Translations under genes and position numbers: made by a program
Assembly: GCF_009877425.1 (NCBI RefSeq)
Contig: NZ_WXEY01000002.1
Location: 52,960-76,959 of the forward strand
Source: Heliomicrobium undosum
GTDB lineage: Bacteria; Bacillota; Desulfitobacteriia; Heliobacteriales; Heliobacteriaceae
Length of the DNA stretch: 24,000 nucleotides
Direction of reading: 5' to 3'
In this document: one piece after another, positions 1,976 to 24,000 of the stretch
How the letters are laid out: each line of letters opens with the position of its first letter
Numbering within the stretch: position 1 is the first letter of the stretch
The notes under the pieces: model-generated
The model's input: the letters and a program-made list of their open reading frames with translations, nothing else
The model's database searches: none
Told to the model about the DNA's origin: nothing

Positions 1976-3085
1976 ATGAATATGCATGCGGCCCGAGTAC
2001 GACAGTTGCCGGGATTTGAACCGGGCGAGGGAAAGAATCTGACCGTAGGGCTCGACATCGGTTTCGGCTATGTCAAGGTCGTTGCCGGAAACGGCCGCTG
2101 GGCGCTTTTTCCCAGCATCGTCGGCGAAGGCCGGGAACTGCACATCCTGTCCGGCTTTGGCTCCAACGATCCCATGGACAACCTTGTCGTTGACGTGGAC
2201 GGACGGCGCTATTTTGTGGGCAATCTCGCCCTGCGCGAGACGGAAGCGGAACTCGACATCGACCCCGACAAGATCTTCAACATTGATTTTGAAGTGCTCG
2301 TCTACACGGCGTTGGCCCTGGTCAGTGACAAGCCTGATCAGGATGTAAACATCTACCTTGGTCTGCCGATCAACTTTTACCGTACCCAGAAAGCGCGCTT
2401 TGAGGACAAGCTCCGCGCCCACCAGATGTCCCGCTTCGTCAAAATCCTGGGACAGGACGTGCGGCTGATCCGCATCCGCAACTTCGAGATTTTCCCCCAG
2501 GCCGGGGGCGCCATCTTCAACCAAATCCTCGACTTCCGCTCCGAGGTCCGCACACCCCGGCTCGCCCGAGGCAAGATCGGCATCATCGACGGGGGAACGA
2601 AGACAACCGACTGCATCTACATGGAAGACCTGAAGTTCGTCGACCAGCGCAGCTATTCAGTCAATGATGGCGGCACCCACAAGATTCTTATGGATATTCG
2701 GGACTTTTTGATGAAAAACTTTGATCATTACTATCCCCGTCTCGCTGAAGTCGACCAGATGCTCCGGGAACGGAAGGTGGAGGTCAAAGGGAAGGTCTAT
2801 GATCTCTCCTCGGTGATCGACGCGTCGGCCTCCCGTGTGGCGAGAAAAATCGTCCGGGAGATCGCGGCGAAATGGCCGAACCACATGGAATTCCGGGCCA
2901 TGATCCTCGTCGGCGGCGGCGGCTATGTGATGCATCCCTTCCTAAAGGAGACCTTCCCCGATATCCTCCTCGTCCAGGACGAGTTTGAGGGTGAAGCGGT
3001 GGCTGGCGATTGGAACGTCATCCAGTTCGCCAATGCGCTCGGCTTCTTAAAACTGGCCGTCATGCGCTACGGAGAAAAGAAATGA
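1976..3085 (+). CDS. ParM/StbA-family actin-like ATPase (Alp-type bacterial actin)
   Basis: All the actin-fold nucleotide-binding motifs are present: phosphate-1 GLDIGFGYVKVV, connect GLPINFY, PQAGGA, phosphate-2 GIIDGGTKTTD, adenosine ILVGGGG, and C-terminal FANALGF. GGAGG sits at 1959-1963 upstream of ATG 1976 (ATG 1982 is an alternative start). Confidence 0.8.
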   Translation: MNMHAARVRQLPGFEPGEGKNLTVGLDIGFGYVKVVAGNGRWALFPSIVGEGRELHILSGFGSNDPMDNLVVDVDGRRYFVGNLALRETEAELDIDPDKIFNIDFEVLVYTALALVSDKPDQDVNIYLGLPINFYRTQKARFEDKLRAHQMSRFVKILGQDVRLIRIRNFEIFPQAGGAIFNQILDFRSEVRTPRLARGKIGIIDGGTKTTDCIYMEDLKFVDQRSYSVNDGGTHKILMDIRDFLMKNFDHYYPRLAEVDQMLRERKVEVKGKVYDLSSVIDASASRVARKIVREIAAKWPNHMEFRAMILVGGGGYVMHPFLKETFPDILLVQDEFEGEAVAGDWNVIQFANALGFLKLAVMRYGEKK

Positions 3086-9219: not shown

Positions 9220-9735
9220 TTAGAGTTTGGCGACGAGGTTGATATGTTTTTCGACTTTGATGATCACCACGTCATCGCCGGCGAGGATCTCTTTCCGATC
9301 AAAGGAACGGGCTGGGGCGCGGTGCCGGACGCCCTTGATCAGGTAGGAGACCTCGCCGAGTTCTTCTCCCTTCATCGAGGTCAATGCCGTCCCTTGCACG
9401 CCGGTAATCTTTTCGCTTTCAATGGTTGTCGTGCTTTCCCCTTCTTTGAGGGGACCGATGACAAAACGTTGGATCAAAAATGAGACGATCAGGCCGCAGG
9501 CCAGCGCGGCGATCCAGCGCGCCGGCATGGATAATCCTTTTGTCATCATGCCAACACCGCCAAAAACGGTGACAAAGGCGAAAATCGATTGTGGACCTAG
9601 CGGCAAAAAATGAGCAGCCGAATCGTCGAAAAGGTCAAGGTCTAGATCAAAGGCTGCAAAGAATTCGCCAAAGATAAATGAAAGGATGGTCATGGCAGCG
9701 CCGACGCCGAAACATACCTGAAAAAAGGTTTCCAT
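9220..9735 (-). CDS. NfeD-like membrane protein (YuaF-like flotillin partner)
   Basis: METFFQVCFGVGAAMTILSFIFGEFF... contains several TM segments, followed by a C-terminal soluble OB-like domain (GVQGTALTSMKGEELGEVSYLIKGVRHRAPARS...GDDVVIIKVE). AAGGAGA lies 9 nt upstream of ATG 9735. The tracked ORF start at 9879 falls inside the promoter. Confidence 0.75.
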   Translation of the reverse strand: METFFQVCFGVGAAMTILSFIFGEFFAAFDLDLDLFDDSAAHFLPLGPQSIFAFVTVFGGVGMMTKGLSMPARWIAALACGLIVSFLIQRFVIGPLKEGESTTTIESEKITGVQGTALTSMKGEELGEVSYLIKGVRHRAPARSFDRKEILAGDDVVIIKVEKHINLVAKL

Positions 9736-9849
9736 AACATTCGATCTCCTTGATTCAGACGTCTTTGATACAGAACGGGAGTCTTTTAGCGGCTCACCTC
9801 CTGGGGCTTTGGAAAGATGAGATGAGATTCCCAAAATAGGTATGTTATA

Positions 9850-9879
9850 ATTATATTTAGAATTATCTTTCAATGTCAA
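9850..9879 (-). promoter_or_regulatory. Sigma-A-type promoter for nfeD-floT
   Basis: The minus strand reads TTGACA (9879-9874), an 18-nt spacer, then TATAAT (9855-9850). Both hexamers match the consensus, and they lie about 115 nt upstream of the nfeD start. Confidence 0.65.
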
Positions 9880-9987
9880 GAAAAATATGTAAATAATAGA
9901 TTCGAATGTAAGAATAATAATTGATTAACGACAAAAACGATATTGGACAATCGGAAAGAGGGCTCACAAAAGAACTTATGGCAAAGA

Positions 9988-10024
9988 AAGAACCGACGTC
10001 AGCGCTTAGCTTCCGTCGGTTCTT
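9988..10024 (-). terminator. Probable terminator of the NlpC/P60 gene
   Basis: Perfect 11-bp stem AAGAACCGACG (9988-9998) pairs with CGTCGGTTCTT (10014-10024). On the minus strand it is followed by the moderately U-rich TCTTTGCC.... Confidence 0.55.
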
Positions 10025-10107
10025 ATTGTGTACCGGAATATTTCGCTCCCCTGGCTGCGGCGGAGGCGCCCCTCCGTATCGAATAGATTCAAAGATTGTG
10101 TTTGGTA

Positions 10108-10899
10108 CTACATGATTACTCTTCGAGCGCAAATAAAAGTTTTCGAATAATATTTATCATTCATATCGCTGATGATAACCCCCTTGTCCAGGGTAGAACA
10201 GTGCAGGAATTTTCCTTCGCTCAAATAAATGCCTACATGCCCGATTCGATCAATGCCCTTTTTGTTTTGCGTGTCACTGTTCCAGAAAAACACGAGGTCT
10301 CCACTTCGGAGTTGCGCTTTTTCAACACTTTTACCTTGGATGGACTGTTGCGCAGCCGTACGATTCAGTTGTATGTGATTTACCCCGTACACGTACTGCG
10401 TAAAGCTTGAACAGTCAAAGGCAGTGGGGGTCATCGACTTGGCGCCATATTTATAGGGCTTGCCCAGCAGTTTTTTTCCTGTAGAGACGAGCGCATTGAT
10501 GATTTTTTGCCGTTCATCATTGTTGGCGCTTTGCGCTGATTGGATCGGTTGCATTACGTTCTGAGGTAAGTTCGAGGTAGGTAGAGGTTGCATTGCGGTT
10601 TGGGCTGAAATCGAGGGAGAGAGAGGTTGTGTGCTGCTCGTTTTAGACTTTTGCTGAATTGGAAGATTTAATAGTTGTCCTATTTTTAAACTGTTTGGAT
10701 TTTTTAATTGCGGATTCGCTTCAATGAATTTATTTACACTTACGCCGGCATGTTGGGAAATCGACCATAAGGTGTCGCCGGATTTTACTGTGTATGTATG
10801 ATCGTCGGCAAAAGCTTGATTCGGAACAGATATTAAAAACATGGTTAATACAATGGGGCAAAAAAAATATACGCATATCTTATCGTGTTGTTTGTTCAT
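10108..10899 (-). CDS. Secreted LysM-domain NlpC/P60 peptidoglycan endopeptidase
   Basis: Signal peptide ending AFA-DD. LysM domain YTVKSGDTLWSISQHAGVSVNKFIEANPQLKNPNSLKIGQLLNLP. Ser/Gln/Pro-rich linker. NlpC/P60 domain with catalytic Cys in FDCSSFTQYVY and His in GHVGIY. AAAGGAGA lies 7 nt upstream. Confidence 0.88.
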   Translation of the reverse strand: MNKQHDKICVYFFCPIVLTMFLISVPNQAFADDHTYTVKSGDTLWSISQHAGVSVNKFIEANPQLKNPNSLKIGQLLNLPIQQKSKTSSTQPLSPSISAQTAMQPLPTSNLPQNVMQPIQSAQSANNDERQKIINALVSTGKKLLGKPYKYGAKSMTPTAFDCSSFTQYVYGVNHIQLNRTAAQQSIQGKSVEKAQLRSGDLVFFWNSDTQNKKGIDRIGHVGIYLSEGKFLHCSTLDKGVIISDMNDKYYSKTFICARRVIM

Positions 10900-10977
10900 C
10901 GATAGTTCTCCTTTGAAGTGAATCTTCGCAGTGAGTCAATCTTTCTCGTGAAAGGCGCCGGTGATCGTTTCTATGCG

Positions 10978-11010
10978 TTTTTCGACGTACGAAAAGCAAT
11001 TCCTGTCTTG
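10978..11010 (+). repeat. Copy 2 of the 33-nt intergenic repeat
   Basis: TTTTTCGACGTACGAAAAGCAATTCCTGTCTTG matches 5529-5561 at 27/33 positions. It contains the hairpin TTTTCG-acgta-CGAAAA. Confidence 0.5.
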
Positions 11011-11113
11011 GGGAAAAAAGAAATCGATACAACTCGGAATATGCGATCACTTGCCGGAGAATACTGGCAGGTGATTGAAAAGGCAAAACGATGGTGCGAA
11101 GGAGTTCGGTTTG

Positions 11114-11740
11114 ATGAAGGTATTACTGGTCAACGGCAGTCCCCATGAAAAAGGGTGCACCTATACGGCATTGTCCGAAGTGGCCGGCGCGTTGGAAAAA
11201 GAGGGTGTGGAAACAGAAATCTTTCAAGTCGGAAAAAATCCGATCGCCGGTTGTCACGGTTGCTTCGCCTGTCAGAAGACAGGGAGATGCTTTATGAAGG
11301 ACCCAGTCAATGAATTTTTAGACAAGGCGGCAGAGACGGACGGCTTTGTTTTTGGCTCGCCGGTGCATTTTGCTTCCGCTTCCGGCATGTTGACGTCCTT
11401 CATGGACAGGGTGTTTATTAGCGGCCTTCGGAGCGGACTGTTTGCCTACAAGCCCGCAGCGGCTATCGTCAGCGCTCGTCGCGGCGGAACCACCGCGACA
11501 TTCGATCAGATCAATAAATATTTCACCATTTCGCAAATGCCGGTCGTATCGTCTCAGTATTGGAATATGGTGCACGGAAATACGCCGGAAGAAGTCAAGC
11601 AGGATTTGGAGGGGATGCAGACCATGCGCACCCTCGGCAACAATATGGCTTGGTTGTTAAAATCCATTGCAGCAGGAAAAGCGGCAGGTGTGGCGTTTCC
11701 GGAGAGAGAACCACGGGCGATTACAAACTTTATACGGTAG
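11114..11740 (+). CDS. Iron-sulfur flavoprotein-like NADPH-dependent FMN reductase family protein
   Basis: MKVLLVNGSPHEKGCT is the flavodoxin-like FMN_red N-terminus. It is followed by the compact Cys motif CHGCFACQKTGRC (C-x2-C-x2-C-x5-C) typical of Isf-type proteins. AAGGAG lies 9 nt upstream of ATG 11114. Confidence 0.85.
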   Translation: MKVLLVNGSPHEKGCTYTALSEVAGALEKEGVETEIFQVGKNPIAGCHGCFACQKTGRCFMKDPVNEFLDKAAETDGFVFGSPVHFASASGMLTSFMDRVFISGLRSGLFAYKPAAAIVSARRGGTTATFDQINKYFTISQMPVVSSQYWNMVHGNTPEEVKQDLEGMQTMRTLGNNMAWLLKSIAAGKAAGVAFPEREPRAITNFIR

Positions 11741-11761
11741 CCCATAAAAAAGCAAAAAAAT

Positions 11762-11807
11762 GCCCTCCGCCTGTTTATCTATTTGCATAGAAGGCCGGAG
11801 GGCTTTT
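11762..11807. terminator. Probable bidirectional terminator between the flavoprotein (+) and ybjQ-like (-) genes
   Basis: GCCCTCCG (11762-11769) pairs with CGGAGGGC (11796-11803) around a large loop. TTTT follows on the + strand and an A7 run precedes it, giving a U-run on the - strand. Confidence 0.5.
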
Positions 11808-11820
11808 AAGTTCTCGCGAA

Positions 11821-12135
11821 CTATCTGATTTTTACCGCTGTCCCGCTGGCAGTGACCATTAACATGCCATCACGGATCACCTCATAATCGATATCAATGC
11901 CGATCACGGCATTAGCGCCGAGACGATGGGCCTGTTCTTTCATCTCCCGAATGGCGATTTGACGGGCCTCGTTGAGTTTTTCCTCATAAGCGCCGGAACG
12001 CCCGCCGATCACGTCTGTGATGCTCGCCAGAAAGTCCCGAACAACATTTGCCCCCATCACGGCCTCTCCGGCGACAATGTCCAGGTAATCCGTGATTGAG
12101 CGCCCCTCGATGTTATGTGTGGTGGTAATGATCAT
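11821..12135 (-). CDS. YbjQ family protein (UPF0145/DUF74, heavy-metal-binding-like domain)
   Basis: [51 protein letters not shown]...[12 protein letters not shown] is the characteristic full-length YbjQ pattern (104 aa). AAGGAGG lies 8 nt upstream. Confidence 0.85.
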
Positions 12136-12538: not shown

Positions 12539-13456
12539 ATGATGACGATTCATCGTTCCAGCATCACAGCGCTGATGAGCGCATATGTGCGGGCTTATCA
12601 CTCGAAGCGCGATGCTAATCCGATCTTTGACGATTTCTTCGCGGAACGGTTGTTTACGGTAGAGGAGCGTTCATCGATTGAAAGCAACCTGGTCGCTGCG
12701 TTGCCCTTTTTTGATCCAGAAAGAGTCACATCATGCCCCGATGCGGATGCCGCATTGTCGTTGGTCATTCGGGCCATGAACGCAACCACCGTAATCAGCC
12801 GCGCGCGTTACACCGAGGATGTATTGGCAAAGATGGTCCATGAGGGTGTGCAGCAGTATGTGATCCTCGGGGCGGGTATGGACACCTTCGCCCTCCGGCG
12901 GTCCGATATGTTAGGGCAAATCGAAGTCTTCGAATTAGACCACCCCGCCACCCAGGCCGATAAACGCAGGCGCCTTGAACGCGCCGGAGTGTCCTGTCCG
13001 GAGCGATTGCATTTTATTCCCATCGATTTCACGACAGAGAGACTGCCGGATGCGCTAAACAGGTCACGGTATTCCCCTGAAAAAAGCACGCTCTTTAGTT
13101 GGCTGGGCGTCACCTATTACCTGACCGGCGAAGAGGTGCTTCGCGCGCTGCGGGATATCGCCACCCTGTCACCGGGAGGCAGTGCGATCATCTTCGACTA
13201 CATGGATGCCGACGCGCTGGATCCCCGGAAAGCATCTATGAGAATGCAGAAGGTGCAGGCGATCGCCGGTCGTTCCGGCGAACCGATGAAGACAGGCTTT
13301 GATCCGCGCAGTTTGGCGGAAGACCTTGCGAAAACCGGCTTGCTTGTTAAGGAAAACCTGTGTCCTGCCGATATAGAAGAGCGCTATTTTAGAGGACGCA
13401 TCGACGGGTGCCACGCATTCGAACATGTGCATTTCGCGTGGGCTGTTGTCGCATAG
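12539..13456 (+). CDS. Class I SAM-dependent methyltransferase (LCMT/TIGR00027-like O-methyltransferase family)
   Basis: N-terminal ITALMSAYVRAYHS...DPIFDDFFAERL, SAM motif I QYVILGAGMDTFALRR, then VFELDHP, IPIDF and LFSWLGVTYYL. AGGAGG lies 6 nt upstream of ATG 12539. Confidence 0.85.
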   Translation: MMTIHRSSITALMSAYVRAYHSKRDANPIFDDFFAERLFTVEERSSIESNLVAALPFFDPERVTSCPDADAALSLVIRAMNATTVISRARYTEDVLAKMVHEGVQQYVILGAGMDTFALRRSDMLGQIEVFELDHPATQADKRRRLERAGVSCPERLHFIPIDFTTERLPDALNRSRYSPEKSTLFSWLGVTYYLTGEEVLRALRDIATLSPGGSAIIFDYMDADALDPRKASMRMQKVQAIAGRSGEPMKTGFDPRSLAEDLAKTGLLVKENLCPADIEERYFRGRIDGCHAFEHVHFAWAVVA

Positions 13457-13757: not shown

Positions 13758-13874
13758 AGCGCGCCACCTCCTATCTACGCCTCCGGCTGAAACGTCCCCT
13801 CCGAGGGGCGTTTTCTTTATGCTCCCCTTGGCGCCTTTGTACAAACCGAAATCTCAATGCCTGAGGCGTTTCAC

Positions 13875-13889: not shown

Positions 13890-13992
13890 CATTCCGGTGT
13901 TTCTTCACACACAAAGGCGGCTCACCAGCCAGGGGGGCTTTACATATAGTGCTATAGACTTGGGGAGGGGGTGTGAACCGATCATTCTCGGC

Positions 13993-15042
13993 ATGCTCGT
14001 TCATCCCCGAACCATTCGGGAAAATTTCCGTGGCAACCGGCTATTTTTCGGGCAGATGGCGCTGTTGGGGAAGACAATGGATATCACCCTGGTCGTTTTC
14101 CCGCCAAAGCATGTCGACTGGCAGCGCTGTCACGTGAAGGGGTATGTCTATGACAGCCGGAGACAGCGCTGGATTCTGCGACGAACGCCCATTCCGGATG
14201 TCGTCTATGACCGCTATATCCCCCATGATTTGCAAACAGCCAGGGTGATCTCCTGCAGGCGGGCCTTCCAGATGCGGGGGATTCCCATCTTCAATCCCCC
14301 CTTCGGCGGCAAATACGGTGTCTACCGGCGACTGCTCAATGATCCGGCCATCGCTCCCCACCTGCCGGAAACGCGATTGCTCATGGGAGAGCGGGGGTGG
14401 TCATCCAGGCTGGCAGCATGGCGGAAGGTGTACCTCAAACCGGACAAGGGATCAAAAGGCAAGGGGATCATCCGCATGTCCCTAGCTGGAGAAGAAGAGG
14501 TCGTCGTCGAGCCAACGGGCGGGCAGAGACAGTACTTGCGACGCAAGGCAGCCTGGCGGTGGCTCAAGAGCCGGACGTTAGGGCAGCGCTACCTGATCCA
14601 GCGGGCCATCGAACCGGCTTGCTGGAAGGGGCGCATCTATGACCTGCGCGTCCTGGTCCAGCGGGAGATGCGCGGGCAATGGGAGGTCACTGGGGGCAGC
14701 GCGCGGGTGACGGGCAATGGGATCACCTGCAACCTGCACACCGGCGCCAGCGCCGCGCCGCTTTCGGAGGCGCTGGCAGAGAGCGGTGTTGAGGTGACGG
14801 CGGAACAGGTTTTTGCGCTGTCCCTGCGCATCGCCCACGCCCTGTCCCGCCACTACCCGGGACTGGCGGAACTAGGGCTCGACTTCCTGGTTGATCGCGA
14901 AGGCAGGGTATGGTTTTTAGAAGCCAATTCACGCCCCGGGCGGAGCATCTTCAGTCGCATCGGCGACTTGCAAGGGCGCCTCACGGCGGTCCGCCGGCCC
15001 TTGGAGTATGCGCGGTATCTGGCAGGGAAAGAGGCCGGGTGA
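13993..15042 (+). CDS. YheC/YheD-family ATP-grasp ligase, paralogue 1
   Basis: Shares blocks with the next two ORFs: VYLKPDKGSKGKGI (ATP-Lys loop), YDLRVLVQ, TCNLHTGASA, and ELGLDFLVDREGRVWFLEANSRPGR (Mg/ATP E-x-N). The start is uncertain. ATG 13993 is the first ATG after the divergent gene. TTG 13960, or ATC/ATT 13981/13984 downstream of GGAGGGGGTG, are alternatives. The 13711 start overlaps the opposite-strand gene and is rejected. Confidence 0.8.
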   Translation: MLVHPRTIRENFRGNRLFFGQMALLGKTMDITLVVFPPKHVDWQRCHVKGYVYDSRRQRWILRRTPIPDVVYDRYIPHDLQTARVISCRRAFQMRGIPIFNPPFGGKYGVYRRLLNDPAIAPHLPETRLLMGERGWSSRLAAWRKVYLKPDKGSKGKGIIRMSLAGEEEVVVEPTGGQRQYLRRKAAWRWLKSRTLGQRYLIQRAIEPACWKGRIYDLRVLVQREMRGQWEVTGGSARVTGNGITCNLHTGASAAPLSEALAESGVEVTAEQVFALSLRIAHALSRHYPGLAELGLDFLVDREGRVWFLEANSRPGRSIFSRIGDLQGRLTAVRRPLEYARYLAGKEAG

Positions 15043-15046
15043 GAGC

Positions 15047-16381
15047 ATGGGCACCATCTACCTGACGGCCCACCAGGCCGGGACAATCGGCGTCGAAGCG
15101 GGGAAAGCAGTCCTCATCCGCGCCGGCGTGCTCTCCTGGCAGGCAAATGTCCGTGTCGTTTCAACCAAACTGCAGTCCCCGCTCGCTCCGGGCGTGCTGT
15201 CCGGCCTGCACTGGCCTGCCGATCTACCCTATCAACTCACCTACTCGAAAGAGGAGCAGGCCTTTGTCGCCGGTCCTCTGCTCGGTATTTTTTCCTACCG
15301 TTATCCAAACAAATCCTACCTCTGGTCGTCTCACTTAAAAGAAACCCAGCGCTACGCCCGTGACTTGGGCGTTATTGCTGTCGTTTTTAGTCCTCAGGAC
15401 ATTGATTGGGGGGAGCGGACGGTGACAGGCGTCATCCTCGTCGGTGATGAGTGGCGCAAGAAGACCTTCCCCATCCCCCGGGTCGTCTATAACCGAATTC
15501 CTTCGCGAAAGGTAGAGAACCTGCCGGAGGTCATCGACTGCAAAAATCATCTGCTCGAAATACCGGGCCTGATTCTCTTCAACCCCCGCTACCTCGACAA
15601 GTGGGAGACCCACCGTCTGCTCCAGCAGCACGTCGCCGTCCGGTCGCTTCTGCCGGAAACGCGCCTGTTGCAGAAAGCGGAGGATATCTGGCCCTTGCTT
15701 AAAGAGCACCGCGTCGTCTACATTAAACCGATCCATGGGACCCAGGGATATGGCATCTACCGGATCGGCCTCCACCCGTCAGGGGGGTACTCCTGGATCG
15801 GCTGCCAATCGGCGGTCACCCTGGGGCTGGCGTACACGCGAAACGCGATTGAAGCCAAGATCAAACGGCTCCTTGAACGAACCGCCTATGTGGCGCAGCA
15901 GGGGTTGCGCCTGGCCTTGATCGAGGGGGCGCCCTTCGACATCCGCCTGCTGGCGCAGAAAGACGGCCGAGGGAAATGGGGGATTACCAAGGCGTTCGGC
16001 CGGATTGCCCCGCCGGGCAAGTTCACCTCCAACCTCAGCCAAGGCGGAAAGGCGATGGGCATCCTCAATTCCTTGAAGGCCGCCTCGCTGCCGCCGAAGC
16101 GAAAACGGTCGACCATCCTCAGAGAATTGCAGCGGTGGGGGGGAGCACTGCCCCGCATCTTGGAGGAGAGCGCTGGATTTACACTGGGGGAATTGGGGCT
16201 AGACATGGCAATTGACCGAAGCGGCAAGGTCTGGTTGCTGGAAATCAACGCCAAACCCTTCAAACGGCTCGACGAAGGGGAGGGGGATCCGCGGCTCGTC
16301 CGTCTTTCCCTGGAGCGGCCAGTCGTCTATGGGCGCTTCCTGGACGGATTTGAGGACGAAGGAAGGGGCCGATCTCCATGA
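15047..16381 (+). CDS. YheC/YheD-family ATP-grasp ligase, paralogue 2, with a unique ~85-aa N-terminal extension
   Basis: ATG 15047 lies 4 nt after the stop of paralogue 1. Blocks: VYIKPIHGTQGYGI, FDIRLLAQK, TSNLSQGGKA, ELGLDMAIDRSGKVWLLEINAKPFK. The N-terminal MGTIYLTAHQAGTIGVEAGKAVLIRAGVLSWQANVRVV... has no counterpart in paralogues 1 and 3. Confidence 0.85.
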   Translation: MGTIYLTAHQAGTIGVEAGKAVLIRAGVLSWQANVRVVSTKLQSPLAPGVLSGLHWPADLPYQLTYSKEEQAFVAGPLLGIFSYRYPNKSYLWSSHLKETQRYARDLGVIAVVFSPQDIDWGERTVTGVILVGDEWRKKTFPIPRVVYNRIPSRKVENLPEVIDCKNHLLEIPGLILFNPRYLDKWETHRLLQQHVAVRSLLPETRLLQKAEDIWPLLKEHRVVYIKPIHGTQGYGIYRIGLHPSGGYSWIGCQSAVTLGLAYTRNAIEAKIKRLLERTAYVAQQGLRLALIEGAPFDIRLLAQKDGRGKWGITKAFGRIAPPGKFTSNLSQGGKAMGILNSLKAASLPPKRKRSTILRELQRWGGALPRILEESAGFTLGELGLDMAIDRSGKVWLLEINAKPFKRLDEGEGDPRLVRLSLERPVVYGRFLDGFEDEGRGRSP

Positions 16382-17484
16382 CGGGGCCTTATGTAGGGAT
16401 TCTGGCCGCCGGCGAAGGGTCGAAAACAGCACCTTTTGGCCGGTGGTCGCCGGCGATCGCTGAAACAGTGAATGCCTTGCGCCTGCGGGGGATCAATGCC
16501 GTCGCCGTGGCTGTCGACGACCTGGGACAGAAACGCTTCGTGAGGGTCTGGCGGCCGGGGGTGGGGCATCGTTGGCATGGGGAACTCAAGGCAGCGCCAA
16601 AAATCCTCTACAACCGCATCCTCAACCGCAGCCGGGAGCACCGGCCTGAGGTGCAGTCACTCTTGCGCACTTTAACACAGCAGGGGGATATCCTTTTCAA
16701 TCCAGGCTACCTGTCAAAGGCTGTCCTCTACCGTCACCTGTCCGGCAGCGCAGTGGCTGACTACCTGCCGGAAACGTCGCTGCAGCCGGCGCCGTCAGAC
16801 GTGCTGGCTATGCTGGCGCGCCGCTCCTGCCTGTATCTGAAACCGGTCGACAGTTGCGGCGGCAGGGGGATCTTTCAGATCCGTCAGAACGGTCCCGCCT
16901 GGCAGGTGACGGAGGTCCGCAAGAAGATCGCCCTTACGTCTTCCTTCCATGAAAGGCAGGAACTGCTGGCCTGGCTCGACCGTCTGCTACACCGGCGTGA
17001 GTACCTGTGCCAGCAGGCCTTGTCGCTTGATCGCATCGATGGCCGGCCCTATGACTTTCGCGTCCTCGTCCAAAAAGATGGTCGGGGCCGCTGGACGTAC
17101 GTTGATGCCGGTATCCGGCTGGCTGCGCCCGGTCACGTGGTTACCCACCGTCCCAACGGAGGGCGGATCCTTCGCCGGGAGCAGTTGCTGCGCCTCCGAT
17201 TCGACCGCTTTCGTTGGAAAGCCATTGAATCAGAAATAGCGGCAGCGGCCATCGCGGCGGCCCGCGCACTCGAGGCAGGCAGCGGAGAGCACTTTGGGAT
17301 TTTGACATTGGATATGGGCTTAGAACGGACTAGTGAACGTTTATGGCTCCTGGAGATCAACGCCAAGCCGGGACGTTTTGACGAACCCTGGATTCAACTG
17401 AAAAGCGACTACCTGCTGGCATCGTACATCAGACATCTGGCGGCCCGGAGGGGGGAGTTTCATGAAAATATATATTCACCATGA
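16378..17484 (+). CDS. YheC/YheD-family ATP-grasp ligase, paralogue 3
   Basis: ATG 16378 overlaps the stop TGA 16379-16381 (ATGA). Blocks: LYLKPVDSCGGRGI, YDFRVLVQKDGRGRW, THRPNGGRI, ILTLDMGLERTSERLWLLEINAKPGR. Confidence 0.85.
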   Translation: MTGPYVGILAAGEGSKTAPFGRWSPAIAETVNALRLRGINAVAVAVDDLGQKRFVRVWRPGVGHRWHGELKAAPKILYNRILNRSREHRPEVQSLLRTLTQQGDILFNPGYLSKAVLYRHLSGSAVADYLPETSLQPAPSDVLAMLARRSCLYLKPVDSCGGRGIFQIRQNGPAWQVTEVRKKIALTSSFHERQELLAWLDRLLHRREYLCQQALSLDRIDGRPYDFRVLVQKDGRGRWTYVDAGIRLAAPGHVVTHRPNGGRILRREQLLRLRFDRFRWKAIESEIAAAAIAAARALEAGSGEHFGILTLDMGLERTSERLWLLEINAKPGRFDEPWIQLKSDYLLASYIRHLAARRGEFHENIYSP

Positions 17485-18955
17485 ACCAAATTCAAGCGTA
17501 TCGGAATTGACGCGTCGGCTGTCTGCTCGCGGCGTCAACGTGACCGCCGGCCGGCAGGGGCCGGAAGAACCGGTCGACTGGTGGATCGAATGGGGGGCAG
17601 GGAGGGAGAGTCAATCGGCAGCCGCCCAGAGGCTGTTCAATGCGCGGGCGGTCGCTTCCCCGGCGACCGATTTTGATACGGTGGAAACGGTGCTGCAAAA
17701 AAATCACCTGCAGGCGCTGCTCGGGGAGGATCCCAGCCGTTGGCCCCTCTCCGTCTGGCCGAAGGAATACCTGATCTATCTATGGGATTGCCGCGTTGTC
17801 GCCGTTCAGCGTAAGGTCTTGATTACACAGCAACTGCGCGATCTGCTGCCTAACAAATCGGTGGCGCCTGCCTTTCACTGGGTCGAACAGTTGACACCCT
17901 GGGAAGAGGAACGGATGGTCAGCGCAGCCATCCGGGCGCTACACTGCCTGGGTATTGATTTTGGCAGAGTCCACCTGGGCGTCAACCGCTCCCGCGGCCC
18001 CATCATCCTCGGTATCGACCCGGCGCCTGTGGTCCGCAAGAGGCTGGCCCAGGCTTACGCTGAGGCGATCGCAACGTCCATCCGGGAGTGGCAGGAAAAA
18101 GCGTCTGTGACCATCGGCTCTGACCCCGAGTTCATGCTCTCCCTCGTTCCCGGTCGGCGCATGGTGCCGGCCTCCCGGTTTTTTCCGCGCACGGGGACGG
18201 TCGGTTGCGATAACCGCAGAGCCTTCGGGGCATCCGACGACCTGCCCCTGGCTGAAGTCCGCCCGGCGCCGGCCGAAAACGCGGTTGAGGCGCTCCAGCA
18301 GTTGCGCAACGTCCTCAATGAGGCGAACCGCCTCTGTCCCTACGCCAACATCGCCTGGGTGACCGGATCAGAACCCTACCCCGGTTATCCGACAGGCGGT
18401 CACATCCATTTTGGCGGACTACAGCCGAACAGCCGTCTCATTCGCGCACTTGATCAATACTTGGCATTGCCGCTGCTTTATCTGGAAAACCCGGAGACGG
18501 CTGCCCGGCGTCGCCAGTTCTACGGCGCCCTCGGCGATTTCCGTGTGAAGCCTCACGGTTTTGAATATCGCACCCCGGGATCATGGCTGGCTTCTCCGGA
18601 GACAGCCTGGATCGCCCTGCACCTGGCCGCTGTTGTGGCCCAGCACTACCGGAGGTTGGAACGGTGGGACTTCCTGCTGCCGGAGGCACAAGAGGCATTT
18701 TACAGTGGGAAGCGAAAAGCGCTCATGCCCCTGTTGCGGCAGACGCTGCTCGATTTGGTCGCCCTTGACGATTCAGAAACGATGCGCCGCCTGGCCCAGC
18801 GGATCTGGACGATGGCCGAAGAAGAGGGCTATGTCCAGGAGGACATCGATATCCGCCGCGCCTGGAAACTGCCCGTTGGGATCCATCGCTACCGGTATGT
18901 CCCTCGTCCCCGCTACAGCATCTCCTGGCTAGGCGGCAGCGCCAACCGGATCTAA
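17462..18955 (+). CDS. Fusion protein: N-terminal ATP-grasp-like (probably degenerate) domain plus C-terminal COOH-NH2 ligase (GS/GCS2-like amidoligase) domain
   Basis: ATG 17462 overlaps the end of paralogue 3 by 23 nt. The N-terminal ~210 aa end in AIRALHCLGIDFGRVHLGVNRSRGPIILGIDPAP, which is ATP-grasp C-subdomain-like but lacks E-x-N. The C-terminal ~280 aa carry IGSDPEFML, LAEVRPAP, YPTGGHIHFG and HGFEYRTPGSW, the motif set of carboxylate-amine ligases of the phiEco32-like COOH-NH2 ligase type as I recall it. Confidence 0.75.
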   Translation: MKIYIHHEPNSSVSELTRRLSARGVNVTAGRQGPEEPVDWWIEWGAGRESQSAAAQRLFNARAVASPATDFDTVETVLQKNHLQALLGEDPSRWPLSVWPKEYLIYLWDCRVVAVQRKVLITQQLRDLLPNKSVAPAFHWVEQLTPWEEERMVSAAIRALHCLGIDFGRVHLGVNRSRGPIILGIDPAPVVRKRLAQAYAEAIATSIREWQEKASVTIGSDPEFMLSLVPGRRMVPASRFFPRTGTVGCDNRRAFGASDDLPLAEVRPAPAENAVEALQQLRNVLNEANRLCPYANIAWVTGSEPYPGYPTGGHIHFGGLQPNSRLIRALDQYLALPLLYLENPETAARRRQFYGALGDFRVKPHGFEYRTPGSWLASPETAWIALHLAAVVAQHYRRLERWDFLLPEAQEAFYSGKRKALMPLLRQTLLDLVALDDSETMRRLAQRIWTMAEEEGYVQEDIDIRRAWKLPVGIHRYRYVPRPRYSISWLGGSANRI

Positions 18956-18992
18956 AAAAACCCTGCGGGATCATGCCCGACAGGGTTTTTTT
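18954..18992. terminator. Bidirectional rho-independent terminator shared by the ligase operon (+) and the MCP gene (-)
   Basis: A7 run, then stem CCCTGCGGG (18961-18969) pairing with CCCGACAGGG (18976-18985) with one bulge, then T7 (18986-18992). Confidence 0.8.
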
Positions 18993-19001
18993 CCTAAGGT
19001 C

Positions 19002-19832
19002 TCAAACCAGTTCTTGCGCCATTTCCGTGAGTCGCTCCGCCATGCGACTGATCTGGTCCAGGGCCTGGGTGATGTTTTCCGCCATGTGCACCTGAGCCTG
19101 GGTGATCTTGTTCAGTTCTTCGCCCTCTTTGGATACGGTCAGGATCAGTTGATGGATGCGGCTCAACGTGCCTGCGATCTGATCGGCTGAACTGGCGCTG
19201 TCCTGGGCCAGCTTTTGGATTTCCCCGGCCACGACGGCAAAGCCGAGGCCCAACTCGCCGGCCCGAGCGGCCTCTATGGAGGCGTTCAATCCGAGCAGGC
19301 GCGTCTGATTGGCCACCTTGCGGATGAATTTGACCACATCGTCAGTGGCGGCGACTTTTTGTTTTGCCTCCGTTGATGTCTCATTCAGCGCTGTGTTGGC
19401 TTGGGCCAGATCCTGCGAGGACTTGGCGATGATGCCAGCGGAGGCGTTTATCTCCTGGACAGAGGCGTTTAGCTCTTCCGCCATAGCTTGCAAAGCCACT
19501 TGGCGGTGAATGGGGGTCGCGAAGGCCACGGCGCCCAGGATCTCGCCGCCGGGACCGGGAATCGGCCAGCCGATAGCCATATAGTCAACGCCGTAGACAG
19601 ACTTGTCTACCTTGCGGGTGACGCGCCGGTTTTCATTGATGGCAATATAGGCTGCCGTCGTCGAGGGCAACGTATCGCCAGGGCGGATGCGGAGATTGAG
19701 GTCGGGCGCCGGGGTATAGGACAGGACCTTCAGGTTGCGGTCACAAACGGTAACGGAAGCGGCGTGAGGCAGGATTTCATTGATGTGTTTGTTGATAGCT
19801 ACAAAATGATCCAGCAAAGTCATGTCGCTCAT
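19002..19832 (-). CDS. Soluble methyl-accepting chemotaxis protein with a short signalling hairpin and a ~105-aa N-terminal sensor-like domain
   Basis: Highly conserved MCP tip [35 protein letters not shown]. No TM segment or signal peptide. 276 aa. GGAGGAG lies 5 nt upstream of ATG 19832. Confidence 0.88.
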
Positions 19833-22723: not shown

Positions 22724-23656
22724 CTAAAATCGGAAAAAACCATAGCCATAATCCTTCCGGTCTCCGATGGCGACGGCGTGTTCCAGCATGAACTGGCGCA
22801 CATCAGCTGGGGCAGGGGGGGCGCCGGATTTCTTCCGTCTTTCTGCCATCAGCAGGGCGGCGGCGCCAGTGATATGGGGCGCGGCCATACTGGTGCCGGA
22901 AAGGCGCACATAGCGGTTCAAAGGGTAGGTGCTTAGGATGTTGACACCCGGAGCGGCAAGGAACAATTCCGGTCCTTGGCTGGAAAAGGGGGCCCGTTTG
23001 ACGCTGCGGTCGACGGCGGCTACCGTGAGCACCAGATCGGCCCAGCGCCCCGGATAATCGATGGAGTCCTTTGTGAACGCTTTTGAAGCATCGTTTCCGG
23101 CAGCGGCTACAAAAGTGACCCCTGCCTGATTGGCTTTTTCCATAATGGCGCGCAGTTTGGCGTTCGGCTTTTGGCTCCCGAAGGATAGGTTGAGCAGATG
23201 AATTCCATTGTCAAGCGCCCATTCAATAGCGGCGATGACATGCTCCTGGCCGCCTTCTCCTTTTTCATCGAGCACCTTGAGCGCGTACAGTTGGGTTTTC
23301 GGGGCGACTCCGACGATGCCGATGCCGTTGTCCGAGCCCGCGATGATCCCTGATACATGGGTGCCATGGCCATGATCATCGGCATAGTTGTCATTATTGT
23401 CGAGAAAGTTGTAGCCTCCCCGGATATTCTCTTTCAAATCGGGGTGCGCCCTATCGATGCCTGTATCCAAGACAGCGACACGAATGTTTTCGCCCTTAGA
23501 TCGGAGCCATTGCCGGGGTGCGTTCATCAGCTTAATGCCGTAATCGATCACCTGTCCGGGCACTCGGTCCATAATCCGGTGGATGGTGAGAGGGAAGAGG
23601 TGGTTTTTTCCGTACTGTGGCAGTCCAGCGCCTCGGGCTGTGACGAGATCACTCAT
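22724..23656 (-). CDS. S8 (subtilisin-family) serine protease, intracellular ISP-like (no signal peptide)
   Basis: Catalytic triad in VAVLDTGID, HGHGTHVSG and SGTSMAAPH. The N-terminus resembles Bacillus intracellular serine protease (LPQYG....IKLMNAPRQWLRSKGENIRVAVLDTG). AAAGGAG lies 8 nt upstream of ATG 23656; the tracked upstream extension to 23851 is hydrophobic junk. Confidence 0.88.
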   Translation of the reverse strand: MSDLVTARGAGLPQYGKNHLFPLTIHRIMDRVPGQVIDYGIKLMNAPRQWLRSKGENIRVAVLDTGIDRAHPDLKENIRGGYNFLDNNDNYADDHGHGTHVSGIIAGSDNGIGIVGVAPKTQLYALKVLDEKGEGGQEHVIAAIEWALDNGIHLLNLSFGSQKPNAKLRAIMEKANQAGVTFVAAAGNDASKAFTKDSIDYPGRWADLVLTVAAVDRSVKRAPFSSQGPELFLAAPGVNILSTYPLNRYVRLSGTSMAAPHITGAAALLMAERRKKSGAPPAPADVRQFMLEHAVAIGDRKDYGYGFFRF

Positions 23657-23834
23657 GCAAAAAAGCTCCTTTCCCACAAGCAGCGACGTAGTCGTGATCC
23701 AACTTATGGAAAAGAAGGTTGTATCGTTCCCGTCTGGTTCGACAAAAGCGGTGAAAAAACGAAAGAGGAAAGCAGAGGGAATCGACGAATAGGATAGTGG
23801 ATAAAAATGGAAATATATTCCGGGGGTGCTTGCC

Positions 23835-24000
23835 ATGGGGATGTTGGTCAAACTCTTTCAACGGCGCGGTAGTGGATGGAATGACCCGTCGCCGGGAGAA
23901 TTGTCATTGCCGCCGGGCTTGGGAATTTCCGACCAGTGGAACGGAGCGGGCTATGAGGGATTTCGCAAGCCGGGAAAGCAGGAACCGCAGCTCTATGATG
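23835..24000 (+). CDS. Possible 5' part of an unknown protein (runs off the window)
   Basis: ATG 23835 lies 6 nt after GGGGGTG, and the frame stays open to nt 24000 (MGMLVKLFQRRGSGWNDPSPGELSLPPGLGISDQWNGAGYEGFRKPGKQEPQLYD). No family recognised. Confidence 0.3.
   Translation, partial: MGMLVKLFQRRGSGWNDPSPGELSLPPGLGISDQWNGAGYEGFRKPGKQEPQLYD

Follow-up and report, generated by a model that had tools for sequence, protein, structure and literature searches.

An operon of three YheC/D-type ATP-grasp ligases and a COOH-NH2 ligase in Heliomicrobium undosum, with a possible role in spore-coat maturation

What would a heliobacterium do with four amide-forming ligases that are encoded back to back? 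In a 24,000-nucleotide stretch of the genome of Heliomicrobium undosum (hereafter, the window), four open reading frames (ORFs) on the + strand encode three ATP-grasp ligases of the YheC/D type (ORF1 to ORF3, or Y1 to Y3) and a COOH-NH2 ligase (ORF4, or G). The original prediction, which was made from the sequence alone, held that these ligases build something stepwise: a short peptide or polyamide, or a peptide tail or cross-link on an envelope or spore component. Of these options, the hedged mention of a spore component has gained the most: it is clearly favored over a generic envelope role, because a mother-cell promoter motif is conserved upstream of these clusters and because the clusters are recurrently linked to cotE. 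Our favored reading, to which we give a probability of about 60%, is that the four proteins form a late mother-cell, coat-directed ligase complex that makes amide or isopeptide bonds on an acidic coat component.

Results

Four coupled genes and four catalytic ligase domains

The four genes and their domains are as follows.

13981 to 15042, + strand: ORF1 (Y1), short YheC-like ATP-grasp ligase, about 349 to 353 amino acids; PF14398, E = 1.6e-68; catalytic K, D, E, and N present
15047 to 16381, + strand: ORF2 (Y2), long YheD-like ATP-grasp ligase, 444 amino acids; PF14398, E = 3.6e-71; ATP-grasp region at residues 176 to 432
16378 to 17484, + strand: ORF3 (Y3), short ATP-grasp ligase, 368 amino acids; PF14398, E = 1.5e-63
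17462 to 18106, + strand: ORF4 (G), N-terminal domain, residues 1 to 215; degenerate, truncated ATP-grasp-like fold (AlphaFold2 model and Foldseek)
18113 to 18955, + strand: ORF4 (G), C-terminal domain, residues 218 to 470 plus tail; COOH-NH2 ligase with the glutamine synthetase (GS)/GCS2 fold; PF14395, E = 2e-103

An ORF check confirmed the four same-strand genes, with the start of ORF1 lying at about 13981 or 13993 (see below), and the junctions that had been described are exact in the sequence. ORF1 ends with TGA at 15040-15042 and is followed after a 4-nt gap by the ATG of ORF2 at 15047, with the Shine-Dalgarno (SD) sequence GGGAAAGAGG upstream; ORF2 and ORF3 share an ATGA overlap (16378-16381); and ORF3 and ORF4 overlap by 23 nt (17462-17484), with GGAGGGGGGAG upstream of the start of ORF4. 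A purine-rich SD sequence precedes each downstream start (ORF2, ORF3, and ORF4). The set is translationally coupled, and ORF3 is coupled to both of its neighbors. ORF2 and ORF3 are annotated as GTO91_02370 and GTO91_02375, the latter as a YheC/YheD family protein, and ORF4 is 100% identical to a protein from Heliobacterium (Heliomicrobium) undosum. H. modesticaldum has a nearly identical copy of ORF3.

The assignment of the first three proteins to the YheC/D type stands, with E values of 1e-63 to 1e-71. Against the 26.8-bit cutoff of ATPgrasp_YheCD (PF14398), ORF1, ORF2, and ORF3 score 231, 240, and 215 bits, and they cover positions 1-255, 3-255, and 4-235 of the 255 in the profile. They are 27-33% identical to each other. 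All three keep the Lys loop (YLKP..G..G.GI), the FD.R block, and the LD...E.N..P block that had been quoted as signs of activity. To put this in context, we scored 80 metagenome loci, nine genome loci, and the window with custom hidden Markov models. Among 124 full-length Y proteins from these 90 loci, whose overall identity is 25-35%, eight positions are invariant (124/124): in ORF2 numbering, K185, K227, Q284, D298, R300, D386, E399, and N401, which include the K, D, R, D, E, and N of the quoted motifs. Because these eight positions never vary despite such low identity, it appears that every paralogue has retained catalysis, and judging from sequence, all three are very probably active and belong to the RimK/GshB/TTL class of ligases; their scores do not reach the thresholds of the RimK, GshB, and TTL families themselves.

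The expected alignment of the Lys, Glu, and Asn ligands was obtained. In a profile of the YheC/D family, the K-loop aligns to GshB of Escherichia coli, and the Mg-binding D...ExN block aligns to TTLL6 and TTL. The AlphaFold2 model of ORF2 (predicted local distance difference test [pLDDT] of 91.8) has an ATP-grasp fold, and its best matches in the PDB are RimK (4iwx, E = 3e-12) and GshB (1gsa, E = 1.4e-11), with further matches to graspetide ligases, ArgX bound to LysW, and Ddl. What the nearest solved relatives (RimK, GshB, ArgX/LysW, graspetide ligases, and TTLL6/TTL) have in common is that they attach amino acids to peptides or to protein tails. Single-sequence searches matched no solved structure, and the Pfam TTL family (PF03133) gave 15.6 bits for ORF1 against a cutoff of 20.1 and no match for ORF2 or ORF3. 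The suggested comparison to RimK and cyanophycin synthetase came out mixed. RimK is matched by the fold of ORF2, but in the NCBIfam scan, no model was above its cutoff for the operon's proteins (the RimK-related model TIGR02291 reached 15.4 bits versus 314), and no cyanophycin-type domains were found in them.

Y1 and Y2 are each more closely related to proteins from other lineages than to the other paralogues in the window. The duplication that gave rise to them thus seems to be old, and they are probably not redundant. For Y3, the nearest non-heliobacterial matches are less clear-cut. We also note that ORF2 has an extra β-rich domain at its N terminus (residues 1-76; 15047-15274). It is confidently modeled as β-α-β-β-α-β-β, is common to the long YheD-like paralogues, and has one invariant glycine. 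This domain matches no Pfam family, and one homologue has sub-threshold similarity to the double-psi-barrel domains Molydop_binding and CDC48_N. It may be a substrate-binding module.

The predicted GS/GCS2-like carboxylate-amine ligase domain of the fourth protein is well supported. Residues 218-470 of ORF4 match PF14395 with 345 bits, against a cutoff of 25, across positions 1-254 of the 254 in the profile; this family is of moderate size, with 2,769 representatives at E ≤ 1e-3. The AlphaFold2 model of ORF4 (pLDDT 87.8, predicted template modeling score 0.90) has two sets of matches in the PDB. The C-terminal domain matches glutamine synthetases and YbdK (1r8g), and its ten invariant acidic, histidine, and arginine residues (D221, E223, E265, R267, H314, H316, R350, R351, E368, and R370) are typical of a GS/GCS2 active site. 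The N-terminal domain matches MdnB/C, PsnB, RimK, DdlB, and ArgX, with E about 1e-5.

These fold matches back the "ATP-grasp-like" half of the fusion that had been proposed, but the catalytic residues are missing: the N-terminal domain has no conserved lysine and no E-x-N, and G164 is its sole invariant residue. It has no match in Pfam either, and its profile alignment to YheC/D with hhalign is weak (35% probability, residues 145-189). The domain is ATP-grasp-like rather than a functional member of the superfamily, and we read it as a degenerate remnant that probably serves for docking or as a scaffold. Because this domain lacks catalytic residues, we count four catalytic ligase domains and one probable docking domain in the operon, and no fifth catalytic module.

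A conserved promoter motif of the mother-cell type

Two features lie just upstream of ORF1.

13922 to 13950, + strand: candidate sigmaK/sigmaE-type promoter, identified by conservation; -35 element TCACC (13922-13926), 16-nt spacer, -10 element CATATAGT (13943-13950)
13962 to 13973, + strand: Shine-Dalgarno sequence GGGGAGGGGGTG; core GGGGGTG invariant in five Heliobacteriaceae

Across the upstream regions of these five Heliobacteriaceae, the mean column identity is 48%, and just three blocks are invariant: TCACC, CATATA.T 16 nt further downstream, and the GGGGGTG of the SD sequence. The invariant blocks match the architecture of sigmaE and sigmaK promoters in Bacillus subtilis. The two sigma factors share a -10 element in that organism, and C at position 4 of the -35 element is the mark of sigmaK (PMC517825); the -35 element in the window is of the sigmaK type. 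Heliobacteria encode both sigma factors (PMC9147875). Also, yheC and yheD of B. subtilis are members of the sigmaE regulon, and SpoIIID activates them (PMC517825).

The motif is widespread in the clusters of other bacteria. If we scan from -250 to +150 of the first cluster gene, then AC-N15-18-CATAnnnT is found in 51/59 non-redundant loci, or in 52/59 if we count the window (which was at first excluded because of its mechanically called ORF start), as compared to 38 of 468 control ORFs (8.1%). Positions that the pattern leaves free are conserved as well: the fuller form is CATAT.AT, with the T and the A each present in 31/36. In a five-Y cluster from Paenibacillus, the only match in the 17-kb locus lies 110 nt before the first gene.

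The window contains two other matches, both of the form AC-N17-CATAnnnT and both on the - strand. The match at 9973-9999 is about 95 nt upstream of a 219-amino-acid ORF (9220-9879, -) that precedes a flotillin-like gene. The match at 23701-23727 lies inside the 5' end of a mechanically called S8 subtilase ORF (22724-23851, -), which may start later than called. Either the 219-amino-acid ORF or the subtilase gene could be a sporulation gene, and three matches in the window is not a significant number (15/100 shuffles).

The conserved upstream region also bears on where ORF1 starts. The ATG at 13993 is not conserved as a start: the corresponding codon is GTA in H. mobile, ATT in Heliorestis, and GTG in H. 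chlorum, and in H. mobile the first canonical start is 24 codons further on. The invariant GGGGGTG (13967-13973) is 7 nt before ATC ATT (13981-13986), and the conserved peptide IILGxLVHP starts there. An exact look-up in the protein collection found neither the version of ORF1 that starts at ATG 13993 nor the version that starts at TTG 13960, while ORF2 to ORF4 were all present. It is possible that ORF1 has a non-canonical ATC or ATT start. So the control region that had been described as 235 bp is present, but its length is approximate, as the SD sequence and the peptide point to ATC 13981 instead of ATG 13993.

Linkage of the ligases to each other and to cotE

The 3+1 arrangement is conserved: H. 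mobile, H. chlorum, Heliorestis acidaminivorans, H. convoluta, and a metagenome-assembled genome (MAG) of the Heliobacteriaceae all have the order Y-Y-Y-G. In all of these, wherever the contig reaches, glyceraldehyde-3-phosphate dehydrogenase (GAPDH) is encoded downstream of the cluster, and H. mobile and H. chlorum also have genes for CorA and an S8 protease after the cluster. The genes upstream of the cluster are not conserved among the Heliobacteriaceae.

Of the 90 loci that we scored, 76 have at least 1 kb of sequence upstream of G, and the gene directly upstream on the same strand encodes a Y protein in 71 of them and is cotE in the other 5. About 20 clusters begin with cotE, from Alicyclobacillus, Paenibacillus, Aneurinibacillus, Phosphitispora, and metagenomic lineages. 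The orders include cotE-Y-Y-G (Alicyclobacillus), cotE-G-mutS-mutL (Paenibacillus and Aneurinibacillus), cotE-cotE-Y-Y-Y-Y-G (Phosphitispora), and, with C for cotE, C-Y-G-Y-Y-Y and others (metagenomes). The linkage of Y, G, and cotE spans several families of Bacilli and Clostridia, with three to five distinct Y paralogues per cluster.

We made two observations about these relatives in passing. First, homologues of CotE (PF10628) are present in the class Clostridia, namely a tandem pair in Phosphitispora (locus L009, 1235-2422) and others in Thermincola and in MAGs of Peptococcaceae; a survey from 2012 reported no CotE in clostridia (PMC3533761). Second, Paenibacillus sp. 32O-W (locus L090, 5381-12279) encodes five YheC/D paralogues and a GNAT acetyltransferase one after another, adjoining cotJA-cotJB-cotJC and ytrH/ytrI.

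Several neighbors were considered as partners of the ligases and rejected. The LCM-family methyltransferase (12539-13456) and the small divergent membrane ORF are not beside the cluster in other Heliobacteriaceae. In 43 loci, a 780-amino-acid protein with three Peptidase_M99/AstE_AspA repeats (M14-like carboxypeptidases) is encoded convergently to G, at a median of 12 nt past the stop codon of G (for example, 9617-11959, - strand, in locus L005). M14 enzymes remove polyglutamate tails in eukaryotes, and this protein might be imagined as a "de-tailing" partner. We set this idea aside, as the unrelated flanking genes trkA and trkH are equally syntenic; the linkage may merely reflect the relatedness of these loci.

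Basic enzymes and acidic CotE tails

The four proteins of the operon have isoelectric points (pI) of 9.2-10.6, while those of their neighbors are 4.9-7.8. The same is true of their relatives:

Y proteins (n = 124): median pI 9.94; 100% above pI 8
G proteins (n = 85): median pI 9.65; 100% above pI 8
Control ORFs (n = 340): median pI 5.95; 25% above pI 8

Conversely, all of the cluster-linked CotE proteins (21/21) have long acidic C-terminal tails, with a median of 16 D or E among the last 35 residues. Acidic C-terminal tails are the substrates of RimK, the TTLLs, and LysX/ArgX alike. The combination of basic enzymes and acidic CotE tails hints at a macromolecular acidic partner, but this is suggestive only.

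Flanking signals and other neighbors

The operon is bracketed by a terminator-like hairpin and a bidirectional terminator.

13789 to 13814, + strand: terminator-like hairpin, GAAACGTCCCCTCCGAGGGGCGTTTT followed by a T-rich run; 10-pair stem, upstream of the operon promoter
18954 to 18992, both strands: bidirectional intrinsic terminator, common to the operon and the convergent gene at 19002-19832; identified by folding

The first hairpin faces the + strand and comes shortly before the promoter, so the operon is probably shielded from read-through on that strand. The second was described as a strong bidirectional terminator, and folding bears this out (-27.9 kcal/mol, z = -4.7, and 0/200 shuffles as stable). 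Its stem-loop has A7 on one side and T7 on the other, which allows it to act for either of the convergent genes. A search of the window with Rfam found no RNA element.

Intergenic spaces within the operon are 0-4 nt, and all that is found in the flanks is the terminator and a small membrane-like ORF that is not conserved, with no sign of a precursor-peptide gene. The four proteins and their neighbors have no Pfam domains of nonribosomal peptide synthetases (NRPS), Mur ligases, or cyanophycin-synthetase-type assembly, and no gene for an exporter, a tailoring enzyme, a flippase, or a glycosyltransferase is linked to the operon in the window. The absence of an NRPS, a Mur ligase, a precursor-peptide gene, and an exporter nearby had been part of the original prediction, and the domain scan upholds it.

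Two other genes in the window are worth mentioning. The convergent gene at 19002-19832 (- strand) encodes a 276-amino-acid protein with a methyl-accepting chemotaxis protein (MCP) signaling domain only; no sensor domain or transmembrane region was detected with Pfam. H. mobile, H. chlorum, and Heliorestis lack this gene here, and GAPDH comes directly after the operon in them. And an actin-like gene of the ParM/Alp7A type (1976-3085, + strand; ALP_N and MreB-like_C) is chromosomal here, with a homologue near the same cluster in Heliorestis convoluta (locus L091, 16352-17410). Genes of this type are usually found on plasmids or phages.

Discussion

A coat-directed ligase complex

Under our favored reading, the operon would be transcribed in the mother cell from the sigmaK/sigmaE-type promoter during sporulation. 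Y1, Y2, and Y3, which would not be redundant, would each convert a carboxylate to an acyl-phosphate and couple it to an amine, most likely that of an amino acid, and G would then make a further amide or isopeptide bond. The degenerate N-terminal domain of G would dock it to a Y partner. The acceptor would most likely be an acidic polypeptide associated with the coat and not a free metabolite. The coat is assembled in the cytoplasm of the mother cell, where ATP is available. And in B. subtilis, YheD is a protein of the basement layer of the coat (PMC7725329).

Some of our observations weigh against this reading. The promoter was called with the B. subtilis consensus, which may not be the consensus of heliobacteria. 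The basic pI of these proteins could reflect targeting to the coat instead of the charge of the substrate. Among the 89 comparison loci, many are metagenome contigs that are related to one another, so our counts overstate the number of independent cases. The neighbors of the operon in the window are housekeeping genes, and none are sporulation genes. In the literature on YheC/D, PF14398, and PF14395, we found no functional work beyond data on coat localization and regulons, and nothing on substrates or products. Finally, a profile search found no CotE in heliobacteria, and none is reported in the literature (PMC9147875). We therefore reject CotE as a universal acceptor: heliobacteria have the operon, and as no CotE was found there, any acceptor in them must be another protein.

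A bolder version of the idea is that Y and G form an ATP-dependent machine for tailing and cross-linking proteins of the spore coat. The RimK/TTL-like Y ligases would extend or decorate the acidic C-terminal tail of a morphogenetic coat protein, and G would join a carboxylate of this tail to a lysine of another coat protein. The acceptor would be CotE where cotE is immediately upstream and another acidic protein in heliobacteria. The coat would thereby become covalently bonded in a manner that resembles pupylation, with no need for a transglutaminase. We consider this version to be speculative and fairly improbable.

Could the ligases instead build a free short peptide or polyamide, by a cascade of L-amino-acid ligases or as a poly-amino-acid, that is deposited in or around the spore without modifying any protein? 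We think that this is unlikely, but it is the rival that we take most seriously. Small-molecule ligases (GshB, Ddl, and YbdK) are among the fold matches, three to five paralogues per cluster would resemble a cascade with one bond per enzyme, such as MurC-F, and the heliobacterial operon contains no conserved gene for an acceptor. On the other hand, the substrates of the closest relatives beyond GshB (RimK, TTLL6, ArgX/LysW, and graspetide ligases) are the tails of proteins or peptides, no gene for an exporter or a tailoring enzyme accompanies the operon, and YheD is physically in the coat (PMC7725329). The universally basic charge and the direct adjacency to cotE also fit a macromolecular acidic partner better. 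We consider it decidedly improbable that amino acids are added to a glycopolymer or to peptidoglycan, such as the cortex or a teichuronopeptide-like wall polymer. For TupA-like ATP-grasps, a role in decorating surface polysaccharides has been predicted (PMC13419641), and basic enzymes could bind anionic polymers, but the window's proteins do not match TupA, and PF14398 is the sole above-threshold ATP-grasp match of the window's ORFs. Furthermore, the cortex lies outside the cytoplasm of the mother cell, where ATP-dependent ligation would not occur, so any modification would have to take place on precursors that are still to be exported, and the operon is not linked to a gene for a flippase or a glycosyltransferase. 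Neighbors that might suggest a role in the wall, which are a Mur-ligase gene near the Phosphitispora cluster and the triple Peptidase_M99 gene convergent to G, are on the opposite strand, and trkA and trkH, which flank the M99 block, are just as conserved.

It has been noted by Galperin and colleagues that conserved "enzymes" of the coat are "not necessarily active" (bioRxiv 10.1101/2022.02.25.481979), and the N-terminal domain of ORF4 is indeed degenerate. So these could be exapted enzymes that persist as structural components of the coat and have lost their enzymatic function. Without catalysis, we would not expect eight positions to be invariant in 124/124 Y proteins and ten in G, and we view this explanation as very improbable. 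A phage-derived or defense module that is unrelated to sporulation is hardly credible. PF14395 is named after a protein of phage phiEco32, and ORF4 does weakly match phrog_3815 (E = 1.5e-12), but there were just two distant phage matches, at 29-43% identity over part of the query, and PADLOC had 0 matches for all four proteins. Also, the synteny of the cluster with GAPDH and CorA on the chromosome is stable across the Heliobacteriaceae that we compared, there are no mobile-element genes beside it and no marked anomaly in its composition, and its promoter motif is of the sporulation type.

Comparison with known systems

The closest known counterparts are YheC and YheD of B. subtilis. The proteins share PF14398, NCBI names the orthologues "YheC/YheD family endospore coat-associated protein," and both the short form (Y1 and Y3) and the long form (Y2) are represented. 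Also, yheC and yheD are expressed in the mother cell (sigmaE and SpoIIID; PMC517825), and the motif in the window is of the mother-cell type. The difference is that three paralogues and a PF14395 ligase are in one operon here, whereas the yheA/yheB locus of Aquibacillus, which is of the Bacillaceae type, has a single YheD-like gene (452 amino acids) and no ligase. The -35 element also differs, being of the sigmaK type here and not of the sigmaE type.

ORF4 is a full-length match to the phiEco32-like COOH-NH2 ligases of type 2 (PF14395), and it adjoins YheC/D ATP-grasps, as the description of the family says for Firmicutes. Beyond the domain of this family, ORF4 has the extra N-terminal domain of about 215 residues with a degenerate ATP-grasp-like fold, and its phage relatives are distant.

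Among characterized enzymes, RimK and GshB are the best structural matches to ORF2, and the K-loop aligns to that of GshB. RimK is the poly-α-glutamate ligase of ribosomal protein S6 and extends the acidic C-terminal tail of that protein. The identity is just 18-19%, the N-terminal additions differ, and we know of no S6-like partner. TTL and the TTLLs share an alignable K-loop and the Mg-binding block LGxD...W.lE.N.(K/S)P, with faint matches to Pfam's TTL family; the enzymes on both sides are basic, and the TTLLs act on acidic tails. However, this likeness is below the Pfam threshold and is confined to the catalytic core, and TTL and the TTLLs are eukaryotic. LysX/ArgX with LysW and the graspetide ligases (MdnB/C and PsnB) are top folds for ORF2 and for the N-terminal domain of ORF4, and they are precedents for ATP-grasps that act on the Glu or Asp carboxylates of a peptide or a carrier protein. 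In contrast to those systems, no gene for a carrier protein or a precursor peptide is in or next to the operon, and the identity is 9-16%.

Both Pfam families were already known, and a contextual prediction of a spore-coat role for the PF14395 and YheC/D ligases was reportedly made by Iyer et al. in 2009, so the operon belongs to a system that has been predicted but is biochemically uncharacterized. The YheC/YheD-type ligases are conserved coat-associated enzymes, and the paired PF14395 ligase is likewise without a characterized member in the literature that we searched. What is new here is the conserved promoter motif, the anchoring to cotE, and the pattern of charges. These give three handles on the system: a conserved motif of the late mother-cell type, an ancestral position just downstream of cotE, and basic enzymes that face an acidic CotE tail. 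Together, they lead to a testable hypothesis, which is that these ligases use ATP to add amino-acid tails to an acidic coat protein or to cross-link it through isopeptide bonds. If this is true, then it would be a new class of covalent chemistry in the maturation of the spore coat and a bacterial counterpart to tubulin polyglutamylation and pupylation.

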